Positions 1,419-17,333 of a stretch of DNA of 40,599 nt are shown in pieces. The position numbers were made by a program, and so were the translations under genes. Position 1 is the stretch's first letter. Each line of letters begins with the position of its first letter. The DNA is taken from IMG/VR virus record IMGVR_UViG_2537562012_000007, positions 1-40,599 of that record. The stretch is one strand, 5' to 3'. The DNA is from a virus. Taxonomy: Duplodnaviria > Heunggongvirae > Uroviricota > Caudoviricetes. A model generated the notes under the pieces. That model saw nothing but the letters and a program-made list of their open reading frames with translations. It had not been told where the DNA came from and ran no database searches.

Positions 1419-3890
1419 TTAAAAATCAGCCTGACTCGGGATCAGTTTTTGCCAGATAACTGAAACGTATTTTGCCTGGTAACGGGCGTCATCAAGTGCA
1501 TTATGGCGCTCACCTTCGAATGGAATAGCCGTTCTGGCATCGAAGTCTATGGCTTTCCCCAGCTCAACGATTGTGCGTACATCGCGATCGTTGTAGTAAC
1601 GCCACGGGCAGGGGATCCCCTGCCGTTCGTATGAACGGCGCAAAATCGTGTTGTCGAAGTTGGCTCCATTTCCCCAGACCTGAACAAAAAATTCATCGGA
1701 GTTTTCGTCGATAAATTCCCGCAATTGTAACAGTGCATCATCTAACGGGATTTCATCGGTCATAATGGCAGATTGCGCCTCGCGTGATTGCTTAAGCCAC
1801 CATTTAATGGTGTCACGATCAATGACTCCGCCAGCAGTTTCCAGATCGATAGTCTTACTAAATTCCGGTCCCATATCTCCGGTTTGCGGATCGAAAAATA
1901 TTGCACCTATTGAGATAATCGGGGCATCAGGATTTTTTCCCATGGTTTCAAGGTCGATCATTAGATGGTCACACGTCCTGCTGGTGGATGTGATAACGCG
2001 ATGACCGTTCACCGTAATTAAGGGATCTGCCGTCTCGCCAGTTTCACTATCGCTGGCGTGATCCTGAGCGCTGCCAGCATTCTCCTTGTGTGGGTGTTCA
2101 GCGCCTTCCATTTTCTCCGAATCGTCTTCCTGAACTTCAACCTGGTTCTTGTCATCGAATGTTTCCTGGTATGTTGCGTCGCCCATCACCGCACCACAAT
2201 CAGGGCAGTTGCCACCACCGCTCTGACCGCAGGCGGTGCAGATTTTTTCCGGTTCCTGTTGCACTACTGGTTCAGGTTGTTTCGTTTCTGGCTCGTTTTG
2301 TTGCGTATTTGGGCTGTTTTGTTCCGCTTTCTGGTCGTTCTGTTCCGTTTCTTGCTGGTTCTGGTTCACAGTATCGCGGGTCTGGATCCCCTTAACCCAT
2401 TTCGGATCATTCGGGTCGCTAATCCCTTCAATAAATTCACCACGTGATGCAGCAAGCAACTTATCGGCGTCAGGCTGGCTGATATTGGCTGCCTGCATAA
2501 TTTTGTTTACTTCGTCAGCGGTAACTTTTACCGGTTCTGGCTGTGCGGTCGTGTCAGATGCACCAGTATTTTGTTGTGAACCTGAGTATGTACTGTTTTT
2601 GCGGGCGAAATATTCTTCTTTCGTGATTTCAGTAGCCCCGGCAGCCAGCGCCTTATCCAGACCAGAAAGTTTGTTTGCGCGACCGTATTTTTCGCCATCC
2701 TTGTCGGTGAAGAGGAAGTAGAACGGCCCCTCACGCTCTACAGATGGTTCGACTTCCACTTTGCATTCGGTTTTTTCGTTGTCCGGAATTGCCGTTTCCA
2801 CTGCATCAGTTTCTGGTACTGGCGACGAGAGAGTATCAGTTGCGCTCTGATTTGTTCCTTCATCTTCAAACACGCCCTTTGTAGTCAGGTATTCAGTAAT
2901 GTATTTGTTCAGTGCCACAGGATCTTTGTGAATGTCGATCGGACGTCCACGGACAAGGCCAAAAATAGTCTGGCGGTCGTAGCGAAGGGCATCAGGCTGT
3001 TTGCGCATCGATGCCGAGATACGCTTCCAGTCTTCGCGGTCGTTGTCGATAACTTCATTTTTTGCCCAGCGATGGATGCTGCCGTCAATGTTTCCGGCAT
3101 CCACATCACCAGGCCAGAGAGCGTAGGCCAGTTCGTCATCCAGTGTTTTCCATGTCTGCTTGTATTCGCGATGAATGACTGCAGTGACAGGGGAGATATT
3201 TTCTGCTGAGTTTTCAGTGTGCTGTCGGTTGACTCTGGCGCGGGCGAGATCAACAGCAGACGTGTATTTTCCGGTTTCCTTGCGTTCACCTTCGCGACGT
3301 TTTTTCCAGATGCGCATCTCTGCCTGAATTTCGGGCCATTTAGCTCCAGGCTTACATTTATGCTTAACCCACCCGATGGCATGCAACTTAAGTTCTGGAT
3401 ACATGGCGTTAACTTCTGGCATTTTCATCAACGCTTCAACGATATGTCCGTCGAATGTTGCCATGTCTTCCTGCAACAATTCCTGCGCGCTAATCACCAT
3501 ATCAACGGTGATGTTTTCACATGTGTCGAACTTAACCATGACAGCGTTCTGTACTTCAGGGGCCAGCTTGTCAAAAGTGACGTTCATCGGATCTGATTCA
3601 GTCTCAACCGGGACAAAGGAAGCAGACTCCTCATCCCAGCGGTTTTCCTGCATATATTCAGCATCCCAGGAATCGAGGGCAGGGCGGGGTATACCGGGTT
3701 TATCCTCGCAAACAAGAAATTTATAAGCGCAGTCCTGAGCAGCCGGATAATGCTCCAGGAATTGCCAGTGAAATTTTGCGCGGGCGCGACGTTCATCACC
3801 GGCTTCAATGGCAGTGGCTACAGCGACTGCACCTTCTTCCTTTATTGCCTGTTCGTCCGGAATGGCGGCGCAAATAAAGACTTTACTCAT
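1419..3890 (-). CDS. Large exonuclease: RecE-like central region, Zn-ribbon, C-terminal DnaQ-like (DEDDh) 3'-5' exonuclease domain
   Basis: 823 aa. C-terminus has DLETMG ... H-x4-D motifs; a central stretch ([33 protein letters not shown]) resembles RecE as I recall it; CxxC-x9-CxxC ribbon; Q/E/N-rich linker. GAGGT RBS upstream of the ATG at 3890. Confidence 0.75.
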
Positions 3891-3982
3891 TTTGTTTTAC
3901 CTCATTACAGATTTAAGGGTGAACAAATCCCTGCCATTGCTGGCATATAAGAATGAAAGCGGATGTTTATTACGGAACTGTT

Positions 3983-4174
3983 TTAAAGACCTGCCGGGAT
4001 TTCGTTATTATCCTGGTGAATAACTTTATCGACCGGGTAACAGTTACCGGGAATTTTCTGTTCGGTTGCTGCAGTCATACATTCCTGCATTGTCCTGTGA
4101 ACACTGACTGCAATATCAACTGGCTCTCCGGAAACAAGATAAACTGTCAGAACAAGCGCAAATGCTGAATTCAT
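3983..4174 (-). CDS. ydfD: YdfD-like small lysis-associated protein
   Basis: 63 aa, MNSAFALVLTVYLVSGEPVD..., closely matches my recollection of E. coli Qin YdfD; start overlaps the dicB stop (ATGA coupling). Confidence 0.7.
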   Translation of the reverse strand: MNSAFALVLTVYLVSGEPVDIAVSVHRTMQECMTAATEQKIPGNCYPVDKVIHQDNNEIPAGL

Positions 4175-4359
4175 TGTGCACATCCTTTTGGCATCAGACG
4201 TAAACGAGCCAGCATTGAAACAATGCATATTTTATTTAATAGCTCCCCTTCTTGTTTTCTCTTGTTAATGGCATCTTCAGTAAATACTGAGTTACTGATA
4301 GTGACACCAATTTCAAAACAACCTTCAGACGTATTAACGTTTGGTAATAACGTTTCCAT
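4171..4359 (-). CDS. dicB: Cell division inhibitor DicB
   Basis: 62 aa, METLLPNVNTSEGCFEIGVTISNSVFTEDAINKRKQEGELLNKICIVSMLARLRLMPKGCAQ, near-identical to Qin DicB as recalled; GAGGA RBS. Confidence 0.8.
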   Translation of the reverse strand: METLLPNVNTSEGCFEIGVTISNSVFTEDAINKRKQEGELLNKICIVSMLARLRLMPKGCAQ

Positions 4360-4533
4360 TATCGCGTCCTCAACAATGAATTTTGTGATGCGGTGCCTGG
4401 TGCCTCCAGGTGACGTTAACCAGTTAACAATTAACGCCGGATACAGAGAACCCACCCATAACACTGTTTTTGGTTTTAACTGTTCCGCGTGCGCTTAGCC
4501 GCATTCACCGCATCACAAAATTCACTTTAAAAA

Positions 4534-4586
4534 GGGCGGCAGAGCAGTCACGGAGTAAAACTGATACCGCTAAACGCCACCAGAAA
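4534..4586 (-). ncRNA. dicF: DicF small regulatory RNA
   Basis: Minus-strand 53 nt TTTCTGGTGGCGTTTAGCGGTATCAGTTTTACTCCGTGACTGCTCTGCCGCCC followed by a T-run; differs at about 2 positions from my recollection of E. coli DicF; lies immediately upstream of dicB as in Qin. Confidence 0.75.
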
Positions 4587-4917
4587 ATTGATAACAGAGG
4601 GCGTTGCAGCGGGGTTGTCACTTAAGCGTATGGTCAACCTGACAACCCGGTGTCCTCAACGGGGAAGGAATAACCCCGCCATACTTACCGCCGCGCCATT
4701 TCGCGGATTGCCACAACCGGAAGCGCACGGTCGAATTAAATTTAACGACACCGTACAGACAGAATAACTTCGCCGTGCGCTTTCGCGTTATGTCCTGATT
4801 TTTCAGGGATATATCCTTCCAGTAAACTGCCAGTGCCGGATGCTCACCCGTGTCCGGCGCACGCACTCCACCTGACCCGTGGAGAACTCCTTAATTACCA
4901 ACCCTCAGGAGGGGGAA

Positions 4918-5139
4918 ATGACTAGTAAAAATGTAAATATCCAGTTTAACCACGATGTTTCTCCTGCTGGACTTGCGGATGAGCTCACTGCTATAAAAAC
5001 GGCAATTATGCTACTTGCTGCTAAGTTGCCTGCGTCATCAAAGCCAGCGGAAATTTGTGACTCATTGCGTAAGATGAATTCAACAAAATGCAATGAGATG
5101 GCATCACTTATTGAAAGTGCAATTGATTTTAATGATTAA
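4918..5139 (+). CDS. Hypothetical small protein (73 aa), convergent with the early-left operon
   Basis: ATG at 4918 with AGGAGG 6 nt upstream; no recognisable domain. Confidence 0.4.
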   Translation: MTSKNVNIQFNHDVSPAGLADELTAIKTAIMLLAAKLPASSKPAEICDSLRKMNSTKCNEMASLIESAIDFND

Positions 5140-9371: not shown

Positions 9372-9799
9372 GCAATTGTGTAGACGCGTTGACGGTCGAA
9401 AGCATAGGAGGGTTGATTGATCGTTCTAGTTATGCTGTCAGAGCGAAAGCGCAGGAACTGGGTATCAATAGGATGTTAAGAGGGGGGGGGGGTATAACCA
9501 ATCAAAAAAACATCCGCAAAGCGATATTGAGCTAGTGCGGAAGCTTCATCAGTGTGGAGTTCCCCGCCGTGATATCGCTGTAAAACGCGAAATGTCCTTG
9601 GGCATGATTAATCAGTACGTTTATTTCGACAGGAGAGCGCATGAAGTTTGACATCTAGACAACTGGGGGAGCGCTGAAAACGTTCTTAATTGATGTTGGA
9701 TTCGCTTTACATACTGAACTGTTTGGCTGAAAGACACGGTAGTATCACCAATCAAGGTGCTTTTGATAAACGCTTGTGTGTTTGTTTTTTAATCCATTG

Positions 9800-9828
9800 T
9801 TGACAACTAGGTTAGTTTTCCATATCAT
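9800..9828 (+). promoter_or_regulatory. Sigma70-like promoter upstream of the ParA-like gene
   Basis: TTGACA (9800-9805), 17 bp spacer, TATCAT (9823-9828). Confidence 0.5.
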
Positions 9829-9858
9829 CAATAAAAGTGTAAAACTAATGGTGGCGAT

Positions 9859-10905
9859 ATGACTAGTGAATCAAATGTTAATGCTCTGATAGAGCGTCAA
9901 TTCGAAGTTGCTGACGGTAATGTAAGAAGTCTTAATTTGCCGAAATATGATAAATATACAGTATGTAATTTACGGGGAGGCATTGGTAAGACATCTTTAA
10001 CTTTTAATCTGTCATATTTGGCGGATAACGCATTAATCGTGGATACGTGCCCGCAAGGAAATTTATCATATTTTTTTGACAATAATTATGCATCTTCGTC
10101 TAGCACAACTGCAAATGACCTCTTAATGCCTTATTTTGTTCCAGGGCTTGGATTTGCAACGCGTGCTGCAAAGCTAGTATCATCAACTAATGCTTGGTTT
10201 GCGGGCAAGAATAACTATTTTATTCAATCTGATAGTCAACTTTATCTTCTACCTACGCAAATGGCGAATGCTCTGGCTCAAGCCAGAACAATTTCTGGGG
10301 CTACTCAGCAGGTTGTTATTGATACAATTCTTTTTTCTCTGAAGAAAGAAATAGCCAGAGAAATGGTTGAAACTGGTACTACAAAAGCGTTAATTGATAC
10401 ATCACCTTTTTTCTCTGGAGCGACGCATTTATCTTGGCATGCAACAGATGCTTTAATAGTTCCAGTGAGGACAGATCAGCAATCGATTAATTCATTAAGA
10501 TTACTTATTGATACTCTGACTAAACCAACATCAGAATTTAGAAAGATAATGCCGTCTGATGGCCATACACCAAAAATTCAGATGGTGGTTATTACCCATT
10601 GCGGATGGTCAACAGTGGCAGGAGCAAGGAATAAACCAAATCAACAGACAAAAATGTACATCGAAGCTGTAAGAGAGGTAATTCGACAAAATATTAGTAA
10701 TTTTACAACAGATGATCCTAATAATCACATTGTGATTCTTGATGATTTTCTGGGTAGTGGCAGAATGTCAAGTGCTAAGTCTAAACCATTAGAGTTGTTA
10801 AATCCAGGAGATGCAATGACTGTGAATAGAGTTAGGACATCCGTGAATTTATCTGTTAACAAAATAAAAAATGAATTAAAGTTCATTCACAACTCCATAT
10901 GGTAA
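9859..10905 (+). CDS. ParA/MinD-family P-loop ATPase with C-terminal extension
   Basis: Deviant Walker A CNLRGGIGKTSLT followed by DTCPQGN, as in ParA/Soj; 348 aa; markedly AT-rich codon usage by eye relative to the phage backbone. Confidence 0.75.
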   Translation: MTSESNVNALIERQFEVADGNVRSLNLPKYDKYTVCNLRGGIGKTSLTFNLSYLADNALIVDTCPQGNLSYFFDNNYASSSSTTANDLLMPYFVPGLGFATRAAKLVSSTNAWFAGKNNYFIQSDSQLYLLPTQMANALAQARTISGATQQVVIDTILFSLKKEIAREMVETGTTKALIDTSPFFSGATHLSWHATDALIVPVRTDQQSINSLRLLIDTLTKPTSEFRKIMPSDGHTPKIQMVVITHCGWSTVAGARNKPNQQTKMYIEAVREVIRQNISNFTTDDPNNHIVILDDFLGSGRMSSAKSKPLELLNPGDAMTVNRVRTSVNLSVNKIKNELKFIHNSIW

Positions 10906-11250
10906 ATGACATTTTATTTGAATAATCTGGATTGATAATCATTGTTACATTAATTGTTATTAATTCTAAATAATCCTATCGTTCTTCAGGATGAGATAAT
11001 TTATATTTATTTGTGTTGTGATTTTTTGAATTTATTTAGGTTTATGAACTGTTTTAGATGAAATGAATCATGAATACGAAATTGTTGCGGTACTGATAAC
11101 GAGGAAAGACCTCTGCGAGGTACGAATCCGAACCGGCCAGACGGAGGTCGCTGTCTTCACAGCTTACGAACCTGAGGAGTAAGAGACCAGGCGAGGGAGA
11201 AATCCCTCGCCACCTCTGATGTGTCAGGCATCCTCAACGCACCCGCACTT

Positions 11251-11273
11251 AACCCGCTTCGGCGGGGTTTTTA
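11251..11273 (+). terminator. Rho-independent terminator
   Basis: ACCCGC-TTCG-GCGGG stem-loop followed by a T-run. Confidence 0.6.
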
Positions 11274-11355
11274 TTGGTTGACAAAATTATGAATATGCAC
11301 CAATATCTTGGTTGACAAAAGTCGTTTTTTGCACGGATTAGGCGGAGAAGTGTCT

Positions 11356-11949
11356 ATGCAGAACCATCCATTCCCTTGGGAGTTCTTTCCTGAGTTAACA
11401 GAGGAGCGTTTAACCATTATAGCTGAGGAGTTGCTCAGGATACAGGATATTACTCATGAGTTATTGTCATCGCCCTATGATGATAATTACACTCGTGGTG
11501 GTTGTACATTTGGGCGTCAGCGGCAGGCGTTGCTACAAATGTGCGTACGAAAGACATATGACTGGTTAAGACTACTTAATCCTGGCATGGATCTTACGTT
11601 TTCAATTGGGAATGTCCCTATTCGTTTCTTTACTGATGACGCAGATAACCCCAAGAAACGCGGTTTTTTCAAAAGAAATGATGCTGATCGACTCTTCGAG
11701 TCAGAGGAGACTACTCCAACTATGCATCGCTTTGTGGTTGAAAAGCCTGAATTTGAAGGCGAGGGTGGTAGAGTCATTTTTAATGGCTATAACGTGTTTG
11801 GTGAGATCGTGTCAACTTGGACATATGGTGCGGACCGTGTTGTTATGCTGAACTCTGTCGATGATGTACCTCCAGCACCGGTACCTATCGAACTAGAACC
11901 TATCAGTGCGTCTAAGACTGAGAAGGAAAAGAAACAAAATAGCAAATAG
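11356..11949 (+). CDS. Hypothetical acidic protein (197 aa), accessory cassette
   Basis: ATG at 11356 with GGAG RBS; the TTG at 11308 used by the track lies inside a promoter-like repeat; no recognisable domain. Confidence 0.6.
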   Translation: MQNHPFPWEFFPELTEERLTIIAEELLRIQDITHELLSSPYDDNYTRGGCTFGRQRQALLQMCVRKTYDWLRLLNPGMDLTFSIGNVPIRFFTDDADNPKKRGFFKRNDADRLFESEETTPTMHRFVVEKPEFEGEGGRVIFNGYNVFGEIVSTWTYGADRVVMLNSVDDVPPAPVPIELEPISASKTEKEKKQNSK

Positions 11950-11959
11950 TGGGTGAAAT

Positions 11960-13081
11960 GTGTTTAACGGTACTAATTTAAGACTTGCTCGTCTGTATCA
12001 CGAGCTATCTCTGGAGCAGGTTGCTGAGAAGGTTGAAAAAACACGCCAGTATGTACAGCGACTGGAGTCTGGTTCAGCTACTCCATCCCCAGAGCTTATA
12101 AATAAATTAGCCGAGGTTTTGCGCGTGAAGCCCGCCTTTTTCGAAGGGCAGGAACATTCTCCTGTTAATGAAGAGATTGTACATTTTCGTAAACGCGCCT
12201 CGACAAGGATGTCAACGAAGCTATCAACACTCGCTAAGGCTGAGTTTTATCGTCGTTTTATTGATGTATTTGAAGATAACCTTAATTTGTCACCTGTTCG
12301 ATTTCCTGAATTTCGTGTCCATACACAAGAAGATATCGAGCGAGCGGCAGAAAAATGTCGTATTGAGTGGGGCTTAGGCTTTGGCCCAATTGAAAATATG
12401 ACTCGCCTTGCCGAGAAACTTGGGGCGTTTGTTACTTCATTTGACTCCGTTTCGGATGAAGTAGATGCACTGTCTGTTCCTCTACGAAGGCCTTTTATTG
12501 TTCGAAATACAGCTAAAAATTCACCTTGTAGGCAACGCTTTGATATTGCTCATGAGGTTGCCCATTTGATTCTTCATGAAGGAATTTCTACTGGGGATAG
12601 ATTAACTGAATCCCAGGCAAACCGTTTTGCCTCTGCTCTGTTGCTTCCCAGAACGTCGATGGCGAAATATTTTCCAAGACCTGTGGGGGGGAGGATAAAT
12701 TGGCAGGGACTAAGCCAATTTAAGTTGACATGGAAAGTAAGTAAGGCTGCCATTGTTTACAGGGCTCATCAATTAGGACTTTTGACTGATGAGCAGTACA
12801 GAACTGCATTTATGGGGTTGAAACGGAAAGGGGAAGCTATTGATGAAAAAGAAGATTATCTAATCCCTCATGAGCGTCCTGAGTTATTCCGTCGGGCTTT
12901 ATCGTTTTTATTTGAAGAGTTAGGATACGACCCACAGCGTATAGCTGATGAAATGGATATAGAAGTGGACATTTTTTATGAGTTAGTAGGAGATGATCTT
13001 CCTGCGGTTCATGAACTGCCAGGAAGTGGTGATGTTGTTTCACTACAATCTTACCGAACTCTTAGAGGCAAAATTCACTAG
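11960..13081 (+). CDS. XRE-family HTH fused to ImmA/IrrE-type zinc metallopeptidase
   Basis: N-terminal HTH (LRLARLYHELSLEQVAEKVEKTRQYVQRLESG), central HEVAHLILHE (HExxH) motif typical of ImmA/IrrE (COG2856-like); GTG start. Confidence 0.8.
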   Translation: MFNGTNLRLARLYHELSLEQVAEKVEKTRQYVQRLESGSATPSPELINKLAEVLRVKPAFFEGQEHSPVNEEIVHFRKRASTRMSTKLSTLAKAEFYRRFIDVFEDNLNLSPVRFPEFRVHTQEDIERAAEKCRIEWGLGFGPIENMTRLAEKLGAFVTSFDSVSDEVDALSVPLRRPFIVRNTAKNSPCRQRFDIAHEVAHLILHEGISTGDRLTESQANRFASALLLPRTSMAKYFPRPVGGRINWQGLSQFKLTWKVSKAAIVYRAHQLGLLTDEQYRTAFMGLKRKGEAIDEKEDYLIPHERPELFRRALSFLFEELGYDPQRIADEMDIEVDIFYELVGDDLPAVHELPGSGDVVSLQSYRTLRGKIH

Positions 13082-13085
13082 GCAT

Positions 13086-13108
13086 AACCCGCTTCGGCGG
13101 GTTTTTTG
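13086..13108 (+). terminator. Rho-independent terminator, near-identical to the one at 11251
   Basis: ACCCGC-TTCG-GCGGGT followed by TTTTTT; shares the core TAACCCGCTTCGGCGGG with 11249-11267. Confidence 0.65.
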
Positions 13109-13182
13109 TTTTACGTATTCTGGTTTACAATCTACAGGCCAGCCTGAACAACTGGCACCTGCTGCGCCAGCAGAGAAAACCG

Positions 13183-13455
13183 ATGGCGCACAATACCAAA
13201 CATCACAATTCTGATACCGACCTTGCCAGCTGGCACGGGCGGCGTTCTCATACATTCAAATATGACTGGTACCAGCATGCCCCATGCACTGAAGAACAGG
13301 CCGAATGGCTGATTCAGAACTACCGCAGGCGTGGGTACGACTTTCAGAAAGACCTCGGCCCTGACTTCCGACACTGGATAATTTCTGTCAGGCTCCCTTA
13401 TTCCGAACGCCCACCGCGTCCGTCCCGCACATTCCAGCAACGCATCTGGAGGTAA
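13183..13455 (+). CDS. Hypothetical protein (90 aa), nin-like region
   Basis: ATG-initiated ORF; no recognisable domain. Confidence 0.45.
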   Translation: MAHNTKHHNSDTDLASWHGRRSHTFKYDWYQHAPCTEEQAEWLIQNYRRRGYDFQKDLGPDFRHWIISVRLPYSERPPRPSRTFQQRIWR

Positions 13456-13456
13456 C

Positions 13457-14506
13457 GTGCGGGTATTACTTCGACCTGTTCTGGTGCCGGAACTTGGGGT
13501 GGTTATCGTTAAGCCAGGTCGTGAATCCATGCAGGTATTCCATAACGGCAGAGTGCTGGTTGAACCGGAGCCAAAAAGCATGCGCGGTCTGCCGTCCGGG
13601 GTCGTTCCTGCCGTTCGCCAGCCGCTGGCGGAGGATAAATCATTACTGCCATTTTTCAGCGATGAGCGGGTGATTCGTGCTGCTGGTGGTGCTGGTGCAT
13701 TGTCTGACTGGCTGTTGCGCCATATTAAATCCTGCCAGTGGCCACACGGCGATTATCATCACAGCGAAACCGTCATTCACCGTTATGGTACCGGCGCAAT
13801 GGTGTTGTGCTGGCACTGCGACAACCAGCTGCGTGACCAGACATCCGAATCACTCGAGCAACTTGCTCATCAAAACCTGTCAGCATGGATGATTGACGTC
13901 ATCGGTCACGCAATAAGCGGTACGCAGGAGCGTGAATTATCTCTGGCTGAATTATCCTGGTGGGCGGTCCGCAATCAGGTGGCGGACGCGCTACCGGAAG
14001 CGGTATTACGTCGTTCGCTGGGGTTGCGTGTGGAAAAAATCCGCTCCATGTACCGTGAAAGCGACATCGTACCGGGAGAGCAGACCGCCACCAGCATACT
14101 GAAACAGCGCACAAAAAATCTTGCGCCGCTGCCTCACGCCCACCAGCAACAGAACCCACCACAGGAAAAGACGGTGGTCAGCATTGCCGTTGATCCTGAG
14201 TCTCCGGAATCTTTCATGAAACGACCTAAACGTCGCCGCTGGGTTAACGAGAAATACACTCGCTGGGTGAAGACACAGCCGTGTGCGTGTTGTGGTAAGC
14301 CAGCCGACGATCCCCATCACCTGATTGGTCATGGTCAGGGCGGAATGGGGACAAAATCTCACGATATTTTCACGCTACCGCTGTGTCGGGAGCATCACAA
14401 CGAGCTTCATGCGGATCCGCTGGCGTTCGAAGAAAAGCATGGTTCTCAGGTTGATTTAATTTTTCGTTTTCTTGATCACGCCTTTGCAACTGGCGTGCTT
14501 GGGTAA
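13457..14506 (+). CDS. DUF968-like prophage protein (YdfU-like)
   Basis: 349 aa; C-terminal CxxC ... HH-rich region (CACCGKPADDPHHLIGHGQGG ... CREHHNELH) as in Qin YdfU-type proteins by recollection; GGAGG RBS before the GTG start. Confidence 0.55.
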   Translation: MRVLLRPVLVPELGVVIVKPGRESMQVFHNGRVLVEPEPKSMRGLPSGVVPAVRQPLAEDKSLLPFFSDERVIRAAGGAGALSDWLLRHIKSCQWPHGDYHHSETVIHRYGTGAMVLCWHCDNQLRDQTSESLEQLAHQNLSAWMIDVIGHAISGTQERELSLAELSWWAVRNQVADALPEAVLRRSLGLRVEKIRSMYRESDIVPGEQTATSILKQRTKNLAPLPHAHQQQNPPQEKTVVSIAVDPESPESFMKRPKRRRWVNEKYTRWVKTQPCACCGKPADDPHHLIGHGQGGMGTKSHDIFTLPLCREHHNELHADPLAFEEKHGSQVDLIFRFLDHAFATGVLG

Positions 14507-17023: not shown

Positions 17024-17099
17024 GGCCCTTTAGCTCAGTGGTGAGAGCGAGCGACTCATAATCGCCAGGTCGCTGGTTCAAATCCAGCAAGGGCCACCA
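17024..17099 (+). tRNA. ileZ: tRNA-Ile2-like (anticodon CAU)
   Basis: Manual cloverleaf: acceptor GGCCCTT/AAGGGCC, D-arm GCTC/GAGC, anticodon loop CTCATAA, T-loop TTCAAAT, CCA end; resembles E. coli tRNA-Ile2 more than elongator tRNA-Met by recollection. Confidence 0.8.
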
Positions 17100-17100
17100 A

Positions 17101-17177
17101 CCGCCACTAGCTCATCAGGAAAGAGCGTCAACCCTTTAAGTTGAGTGTGCGAGGTTCGAGTCCCCGGTGGCGGTCCA
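17101..17177 (+). tRNA. tRNA-like gene, anticodon apparently UUU (Lys-like), atypical
   Basis: Acceptor CCGCCAC/GTGGCGG, anticodon stem TCAAC/GTTGA with loop CCTTTAA (C at position 33), T-loop TTCGAGT, CCA end; D-loop lacks the usual GG. Confidence 0.55.
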
Positions 17178-17179
17178 GT

Positions 17180-17255
<76 letters not shown>

Positions 17256-17258
17256 TAT

Positions 17259-17333
<75 letters not shown>

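Follow-up and report, generated by a model that had tools for sequence, protein, structure and literature searches.

The virus record IMGVR_UViG_2537562012_000007 of IMG/VR (Caudoviricetes) was analyzed over its full 40,599 nt, the window, to whose numbering all coordinates refer. Its gene order places the locus considered here in the nin-like region of a Qin-type lambdoid prophage. A RosmerTA toxin-antitoxin module (rmrT and rmrA) resides at this locus downstream of the remnant of a hokD-type toxin gene, bracketed by two copies of a short terminator hairpin, hereafter T. The interval from about 11274 to 13101 is best read as a moron-type cassette, extending from promoter/operator to terminator, in which T doubles as a recombination joint; to this reading, which rests on sequence comparison, a probability of roughly 0.68 is assigned. 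It draws on a slot found in both empty and filled forms, on junctions falling inside T, on flanks reassorted around the same cargo, and on native T-like terminators ending orthologues located elsewhere. Loci compared to the window are denoted by L-numbers. Hairpin, RosmerTA and hok are individually not new. The hok-T slot of Qin-like prophages appears to be previously undescribed; neither the slot nor terminator-bounded cassettes were found in the literature searched, coverage of which is incomplete and no proof of novelty.

The 17-mer TAACCCGCTTCGGCGGG is found on the + strand at 11250-11266 and 13085-13101, the two copies being separated by 1835 bp from start to start. An earlier, sequence-only reading of this DNA had described direct repeats about 1.8 kb apart at 11249-11273 and 13085-13108; both copies and the spacing hold, the left copy starting one base later than proposed. 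No third copy occurs in the window, even with two mismatches tolerated; about 0.01 matches are expected by chance, and two copies were reached in none of 100 shuffles. The repeat search extends the direct repeat to 26 nt, with 92% identity (24/26; 11250-11275 vs. 13085-13110). Both copies are called terminator-like by a terminator scan (GC stem, TTCG loop, T-run), and the predicted RNAs fold at -10.3 kcal/mol on the left (5 bp) and -13.8 kcal/mol on the right (7-bp core), both featuring a C(UUCG)G tetraloop. In the left T (11250..11273, + strand), the core CCCGCTTCGGCGGG (11253-11266) is followed by the tail GTTTTT (11267-11272). This copy directly continues the hok 3' untranslated region (UTR), exactly as at empty sites and at K-12 hokD, and represents the original hok terminator and the left cassette edge. 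The right T (13085..13112, + strand), with its core at 13088-13101, an extended 7-bp stem at 13086-13103 and then the tail TTTTTTGTTTT, ends rmrTA and forms the right edge; the copy starts 4 nt, and its stem (13086) 5 nt, after the rmrA stop (13081). RNA tails read GUUUUU on the left and UUUUUUGUUUU on the right. Lying at the 3' ends of transcription units (the hok 3' UTR and rmrA, respectively), both hairpins are, by their sequence, functionally ordinary intrinsic (Rho-independent) terminators. Residue 11267, the first of the left tail, is G in the window and T in close relatives (L001; L005-type loci read TTTTTT), so that the ancestral repeat would have been exact over 23 nt, TAACCCGCTTCGGCGGGTTTTTT. 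The G shortens the left U-tract and abolishes an A-U extension of the stem; the left terminator, now serving the hok remnant only, may be weakening.

The bracketed genes correspond to the pair of a small protein and an HTH-ImmA protein (HTH, helix-turn-helix) recognized by the sequence-only reading. rmrT (11356..11949, + strand) encodes the toxin component, a protein of 197 aa which matches the PADLOC profile RmrT PDLC03929 over positions 1-197 of 198 (E=5.5e-93) and phrog_5786, while no Pfam family was matched; the limits of the coding sequence (CDS) agree with the PGAP annotation in relatives. rmrA (11960..13081, + strand) encodes the 373-aa antitoxin/regulator, matching RmrA PDLC03943 over positions 1-368 of 370 (E=4.3e-201), with an N-terminal HTH_3 (1.5e-12) and a central Peptidase_M78 (ImmA/IrrE; 8.4e-17) domain. 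By these profile matches the cargo is a RosmerTA defence system, a class of anti-phage toxin-antitoxin systems already described (PMC10440598). Both proteins match the profiles over their full length, RmrA showing the HTH plus ImmA/M78 architecture of the family, and the rmrT-rmrA pairing is kept in orthologues. The proteins look ordinary; it is the genomic packaging that is new, not the system.

The cargo begins with the putative promoter/operator region of rmrTA (11274..11342, + strand), in which TTGGTTGACAAAA occurs twice (11274-11286 and 11308-11320), as an exact 13-nt direct repeat 34 nt apart, with TGCAC about 10-11 nt after each copy. In other genera, 10 orthologous loci keep two GTTGACAAA-N10/11-TGCAC units ahead of rmrT; homology to the orthologous upstream regions starts at most 5 nt after the left T-run, which makes the cassette exactly a unit from regulatory region to terminator. 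A simple sigma-70 consensus scan called no promoter at 11274-11342; the best candidate is TTGACA (11279-11284), followed after 17 nt by CAATAT, and both conserved repeats contain TTGACA. The TTGGTTGACAAAA repeats are probably tandem operators for the HTH domain of RmrA, overlapping the promoter. The cargo is compositionally foreign, its GC content being 0.40-0.46 vs. 0.51-0.58 in the backbone.

That duplicated terminators can mark cassette edges, as the sequence-only reading supposed, is borne out by related prophages, in which the hairpin was found both with the two genes absent and with other genes in their place. In the empty locus L002 the hok 3' UTR is followed by one hairpin and then by TTTTTTGTTTTACGTATTCTGGTTTACAA, the exact right flank of the window; the tail of the right T and the bases downstream are identical to this empty site, and hence backbone sequence. 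A single hairpin, in a gap of 24-26 nt, was found in 43 of 60 hok-bearing IMG/VR loci, retrieved via the 90-aa open reading frame (ORF) of the right flank. Among 5,426 complete E. coli genomes, the junction of hok, hairpin and flank is empty, or carries an insert shorter than about 700 nt, in 2,745. Empty forms are known for the right-flank types R1, R2 (the K-12 hokD-rem arrangement) and R3. The RmrTA module is rare, and its best 23 records in complete E. coli genomes (at least 96.8% identity) all lie between hok/hokD and DUF968. Most of the alternative cassettes in the hok slot are bounded by the hairpin as well; the hairpin-bounded cargos include RmrTA, a strongly diverged RmrTA, a Fic/Doc pair, an HTH + ImmA + Zn-ribbon set in two diverged versions, and a 130-aa lipoprotein, the left hairpin copy being decayed or truncated in some alleles. 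The diverged RmrTA (L065, L068, L069, L091, L102; RmrT profile E=4.6e-25 vs. 5.5e-93 in the window) resides in a rem-type, K-12-like backbone, and its hairpins are spaced by 1835 nt as in the window.

The junctions are sharp. Past the right core, the tail and all later bases are those of the empty allele of the local backbone. RmrTA resides in R1a (window, L001) and R1b (L027) backbones, the cargo being 99.7% identical and the 400-nt right flanks 87%. Six right-flank families unrelated to one another, and several R1 variants besides, adjoin copies of the Fic/Doc cassette (at least 93% aa identity). Its stop is always 19 nt from T, except for 25 nt in L295; where the hairpin is intact and the contig long enough, hok-T is located 327-343 nt upstream. 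HTH-ImmA cassettes in the hok slot and in non-hok loci are 80-84% identical, while both 200-nt flanks are unrelated (46-50%), and in L366, L367 and L368 left and right flanks are reassorted around a cargo 96-98% identical. A second slot, formed by a gene for a small membrane peptide and then T, is empty with one T in 16 of 18 loci; the remaining two hold the HTH-ImmA cassette and a second T 1345 nt downstream, after which the same flank family continues. T is the only sequence common to the contexts in which this cassette occurs. The suggestion of the sequence-only reading that the hairpin provides recombination homology is thus supported, one cassette appearing in different backbones, each time with its junction inside the hairpin. 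In the second slot (L380-L397; L366-L368), the product of the hydrophobic peptide gene ends in VLILLVVLAMRRIDY, and the gene is followed by TAAGCACTTA and the hairpin; GCACTTA precedes the hairpin immediately, as in the hok 3' UTR, though the peptide gene is not hok.

These data bear on a vertical history, in which the hok terminator was duplicated once, long ago, to give a T-T pocket whose cargo was later replaced via the long hok and ydfU flanks, T never being a crossover site. The wide conservation of the hok and orf90/ydfU flanks would permit whole-slot replacement among R1 backbones, and the equal T-to-T spacing (1835 nt) of two diverged RmrTA versions fits such a scheme. Still, it does not accommodate one cassette set beside six unrelated right-flank families, nor the HTH-ImmA loci in which both flanks are unrelated to the hok slot; the drop of identity from 99.7% to 87% exactly at the right T is unaccounted for, and T-like terminators are found in orthologues of other genera lacking hok. 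The vertical history is very unlikely and, on these comparisons, appears largely refuted.

T itself is common. The exact 22-mer AACCCGCTTCGGCGGGTTTTTT stands downstream of two E. coli core genes, rpsI and rpoC, a 30-nt hairpin probe matches 3-14 places (median 7) in every complete E. coli genome, and about 90 of at least 122 exact 18-mer matches in IMG/VR, among the matches listed, lie in unrelated, non-hok phage contexts. The sequence-only reading had held that finding the hairpin as a common terminator at unrelated host loci would tell against an inserted cassette. Such loci do exist, rpsI and rpoC among them; the cassette reading is explained rather than refuted by this, because a generic terminator is portable homology. 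RmrA orthologues of Yersinia, Klebsiella oxytoca, Enterobacter and Pectobacterium (67-77% aa identity), located away from hok, end in homologous T-like terminators: CTCCCGCTTCGGCGGGATTTTTT in Yersinia, with the exact core, ATCCCGCTTTGGCGGGATTTTTT in K. oxytoca and ATCCCGTCACGGCGGGAT in Enterobacter. Distant Fic orthologues end in TAA-CCCRC-N4-GYGGG-T6, changes in the stem being compensatory. It would seem, then, that the cargos had T-like terminators of their own when they reached the slot.

The same facts could denote a coincidence of design, each unit ending in its own popular terminator, with joints made by ordinary illegitimate recombination, terminators kept by selection and a repeat devoid of any role. 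The abundance of the hairpin, the T-like terminators owned by RmrTA and Fic orthologues away from hok, and the lack of the right T in some slot occupants are all in line with this. Such a coincidence is nevertheless unlikely, as the switch from cargo to backbone falls inside the 14-nt core in more than 10 independent combinations, with no cargo tail left and no backbone base lost, flanks reassort on both sides of one cassette, and T is duplicated in two slots which share T alone. Moreover, no further copies of the core were found in the remaining ~800 kb of sampled lambdoid prophage loci, and its sharing by five or six cassettes in the slot is therefore very unlikely to be due to chance.

Terminators are targets of some mobile elements. 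The duplication could accordingly be a target-site duplication or an attC-like site, left by a dedicated enzyme recognizing hairpins, such as an integron-like integrase, an IS200/IS605-type or other single-stranded DNA transposase, or a group II intron-like element targeting terminators. The topology is integron-like, with a 3' hairpin for each cassette and one copy when the site is empty, and tandem arrays occur, with three T in L371 and a T-cargo-T-rem-like order in L065 and L077. Against these resemblances, no recombinase or transposase ORF was found in or beside any cassette examined; the window cargo encodes RmrT and RmrA only, and the repeat search revealed no terminal inverted repeats in it. 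The duplication varies in length: some cassettes duplicate the core only, RmrTA shows 23 nt, and L371 about 60 nt, the repeat there reaching some 45 nt beyond the upstream end of the core; a target duplication of fixed length is thereby disfavored. T, a perfect hairpin of 14 nt, has none of the bulges of an attC, and the rpoC and rpsI copies were not seen occupied at two loci inspected. A dedicated enzyme is thus extremely unlikely, and the transposon reading was rejected, as transposase and terminal inverted repeats are missing and repeat length varies among cassettes. The L371 array (3300-5000; IMG/VR 2537561876_000002) consists of three cassettes with three hairpins, namely HTH-ImmA-Zn-ribbon, a GNAT acetyltransferase (147 aa) and a 106-aa secreted or lipoprotein-like ORF, each ending in the exact hairpin preceded by AGCATGA(T/G)AAA; the relatives L370 and L372, with a single hairpin, are without the last two units.

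Returning to the cassette with T as a joint, we infer from these comparisons that recombination is driven by homology at T, as well as the involvement of enzymes acting there. Before its arrival, rmrTA would have ended in a T-like terminator identical to the one resident at hok over about 14-23 bp, and exchange at T would set cargo and T beside the resident T, yielding T-cargo-T. This could result from the integration by single crossover of a circular molecule carrying cargo and T, or from the repair of a break in T by copying a T-cargo-T donor, probably with the assistance of phage Rad52-type recombinases. The short T homology would then move the cassette between diverged or unrelated backbones owning T, and permit its clean deletion. 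In the resulting arrangement, the left T would end the hok transcript (here that of the remnant and of a ParA-like gene) and insulate the rmrTA promoter, while the right T would end rmrTA and, judging from lambdoid gene order, shield the Q-antiterminator region from transcription in the prophage state. Two further ideas were considered. In a Campbell model the left tail would derive from the native tail of the cargo; the RmrTA match, TTTTTTAT, is suggestive and too short to count, and Fic cassettes show none. Cruciform resolution would duplicate the palindrome only, yet the asymmetric T-run is present at both copies, and the idea remained speculation.

Several points weigh against this reading. 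The evidence is wholly comparative, recombination itself not having been observed. Efficient pairing needs at least 23-27 bp with Red-beta and 31-34 bp with RecA (PMC3945230); the 23-nt ancestral repeat, at the lower edge of the Red-beta range, comes near this threshold and in that respect speaks for the reading, but a homology of 14-23 bp is at or below threshold even for Red-beta. The annotation of a near-identical prophage includes a RecE-like exonuclease and no obvious RecT/Red-beta, the window itself not having been searched for a recombinase. Lineage-specific spacers of 5-60 nt separate the left T-run from the conserved cargo promoter, and the left junction is therefore not explained by T homology alone. 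Of 120 phage loci with T, retrieved at random, just 2 had an exact T-T pair. Junctions could also look sharper than the real events were if intact terminators on both sides were selected for. Finally, the right T is missing from several slot occupants, namely HicAB + 142 aa (L080), a 64-aa class (L066), a 110-aa reverse-strand ORF (L031) and rem in K-12, and T may not be required for occupation of the slot. It is because of the unexplained first T-cargo-T, the left spacer and these occupants that confidence is held at the value given above. In L080 (4603-5930), HicA/HicB and a 142-aa protein are followed by a different terminator of their own, GCCCGCCGATGTGGGC, and the hok hairpin is cut after TAACC; this occupant is a T-independent replacement.

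The precise positioning of morons and defence systems in phages is a long-standing gap, the moron concept giving the product and not the mechanism. For one class, this locus offers a concrete and testable answer, a common functional terminator doubling as the homology for gain, exchange and loss. It is a possible, though rather doubtful, extension that T with its U-tract (CCCGCTTCGGCGGG) is a universal docking site, either independent of recombinases or assisted by Red/RecT, for promoter-to-terminator cassettes in temperate phages. Were this true, any cassette ending in T could enter at any resident copy, move from one copy to another and be cut out again, defence and toxin-antitoxin genes would enjoy an integron-like cassette economy without a dedicated integrase, and the popularity of T in phages would be owed partly to its value as exchange currency. 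In practical terms, the slot is a place to look for new defence or toxin-antitoxin cargo, its junction being present, usually without an occupant, in roughly one half of complete E. coli genomes, and engineered constructs or phages reusing the rpoC-type hairpin might acquire recombination joints.

To the left of the cassette, the hokD-type (Hok/Gef) remnant (11063..11249, + strand) includes the 3' part of the toxin CDS, with its stop at 11180-11182, and a 3' UTR with a stable stem at 11190-11211. The 39-aa remnant ORF (11063-11182) matches Pfam HOK_GEF (E=2.8e-16) and is annotated by PGAP as a partial Hok/Gef pseudogene. A complete Hok CDS with the mok/sok region is absent at 11063-11249, promoter, mok/sok and the first ~20 codons being gone and the last ~30 codons kept; an Rfam scan gave no hok/sok family match. 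Both 3' UTR and hairpin align collinearly to intact hokD loci, K-12 Qin included. Relatives with intact hokD (H15-H22, L001) align only from residue 11088 on, upstream of which an AT-rich module (9600-11087; GC 0.35-0.39) stands in place of the 5' half of hok, and encodes at 9859-10905 a 348-aa ParA/AAA_31-like ATPase. Of the complete E. coli genomes searched, no more than 14 share this arrangement of ParA module and hok remnant. Since RmrTA relatives with intact hokD exist, the ParA-like module represents a second, independent insertion or replacement abutting the slot. Rfam matches to rsmX and isrK over the right hairpin were discarded, being far below the gathering score and driven by the generic terminator itself.

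To the right, the backbone flank of type R1a (13113..14506, + strand) starts with a spacer following T, in which CTGGTTTACAAT is found at 13120-13131, and continues with the 90-aa ORF (13183-13455, + strand; phrog_1212) and the DUF968/YdfU gene (13457-14506, + strand); RusA, Q and a tRNA cluster come next. Gene order is the same in empty-site relatives and in K-12 Qin. Downstream of Q, four tRNA genes are found at 17024-17333, one with a CAT anticodon, classified as Met by ARAGORN and as tRNA-Ile in the annotation of relatives, and then Lys-TTT, Thr-TGT and Gly-TCC; relatives carry different subsets. A match to Rfam sR55, an archaeal C/D-box small RNA, on the - strand within the DUF968/ydfU CDS (13845-13906; 23.9 bits vs. 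a gathering score of 35) is almost certainly spurious. In R1 backbones, the box CTGGTT[TG]ACAA lies 15-25 nt downstream of the hairpin; it recurs near the left ends of cassettes A, A' and E (L065, L028), and not in cassettes B, C and F. Its sharing exceeds shuffled controls, but spans 10-15 nt only; it may be a shared -35-like element or have remained from a longer duplication. As the box is native to the rmrTA operon in all orthologues, a longer duplication including it has not been used as evidence.

Among known systems, integrons resemble the present locus in having one 3' hairpin element per cassette, tandem arrays, and presence or absence of cassettes at a fixed site; a circular intermediate is plausible as well. 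They differ because attC sites measure 57-141 nt, with conserved boxes, extrahelical bases and imperfect arms, whereas T is a 14-nt perfect stem-loop with a U-tract; a repeat of 17-26 nt with a perfect stem of 5-7 bp does not qualify as attC. Furthermore, the cassettes described here have putative promoters of their own, the duplicated length is variable, and no IntI integrase was found, a near-identical prophage annotating, within 12 kb on either side, only the phage Int at the attachment site.

The defence hotspots of P2 and P4 prophages and satellites (Rousset et al. 2022, PMC9122126) likewise occupy a fixed position between conserved genes of temperate phages, and hold alternative defence or toxin-antitoxin systems from isolate to isolate. 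A survey of hok showed no enrichment of hok near defence systems (bioRxiv 10.1101/2025.08.07.668861). The hok slot differs from the P2/P4 hotspots in phage family and position, lying, within the nin-like region of Qin-type prophages, just past the hokD terminator, in being empty in most genomes, and in having a repeated terminator as its boundaries.

Modular evolution, with boundary or linker sequences at which modules are exchanged, is reportedly an idea of Susskind and Botstein, and of Clark and coworkers in 2001. Here, too, diverged temperate phages would exchange modules at short identities, the 23-nt repeat comparing to the 23-27 bp of Red-beta. The linker here, however, is not a phage-specific gene end, but a generic functional terminator also used by host core operons, and a direct duplication flanks the insertion, rather than a simple mosaic joint. 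Lambdoid mosaicism has been attributed to Rad52-like recombinases, which carry out homologous recombination in a relaxed form (De Paepe et al. 2014, PMC3945230), and exchange at short identities fits this.

The window cassette is closest to the moron, lying between genes adjacent in empty alleles, with a terminator of its own, a distinct GC content and defence genes. A moron is an extra transcription unit, found between genes adjacent in related phages and endowed with its own regulatory region and a factor-independent terminator; morons also differ in base composition, are expressed in the prophage and carry genes of benefit to the host. They were reportedly described in HK97 and HK022 by Juhala and colleagues in 2000, and discussed by Cumby, Davidson and Maxwell in 2012 (cited in PMC5630979). 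By its sequence the window unit fits this definition, its promoter being putative. The classical description leaves the mechanism of insertion open, and does not name the identity of the terminator as the joint. In the hok slot, in contrast, many unrelated morons share the terminator of the resident upstream gene, with joints that fall within it, and a given moron recurs at this hairpin in surroundings unrelated to one another.

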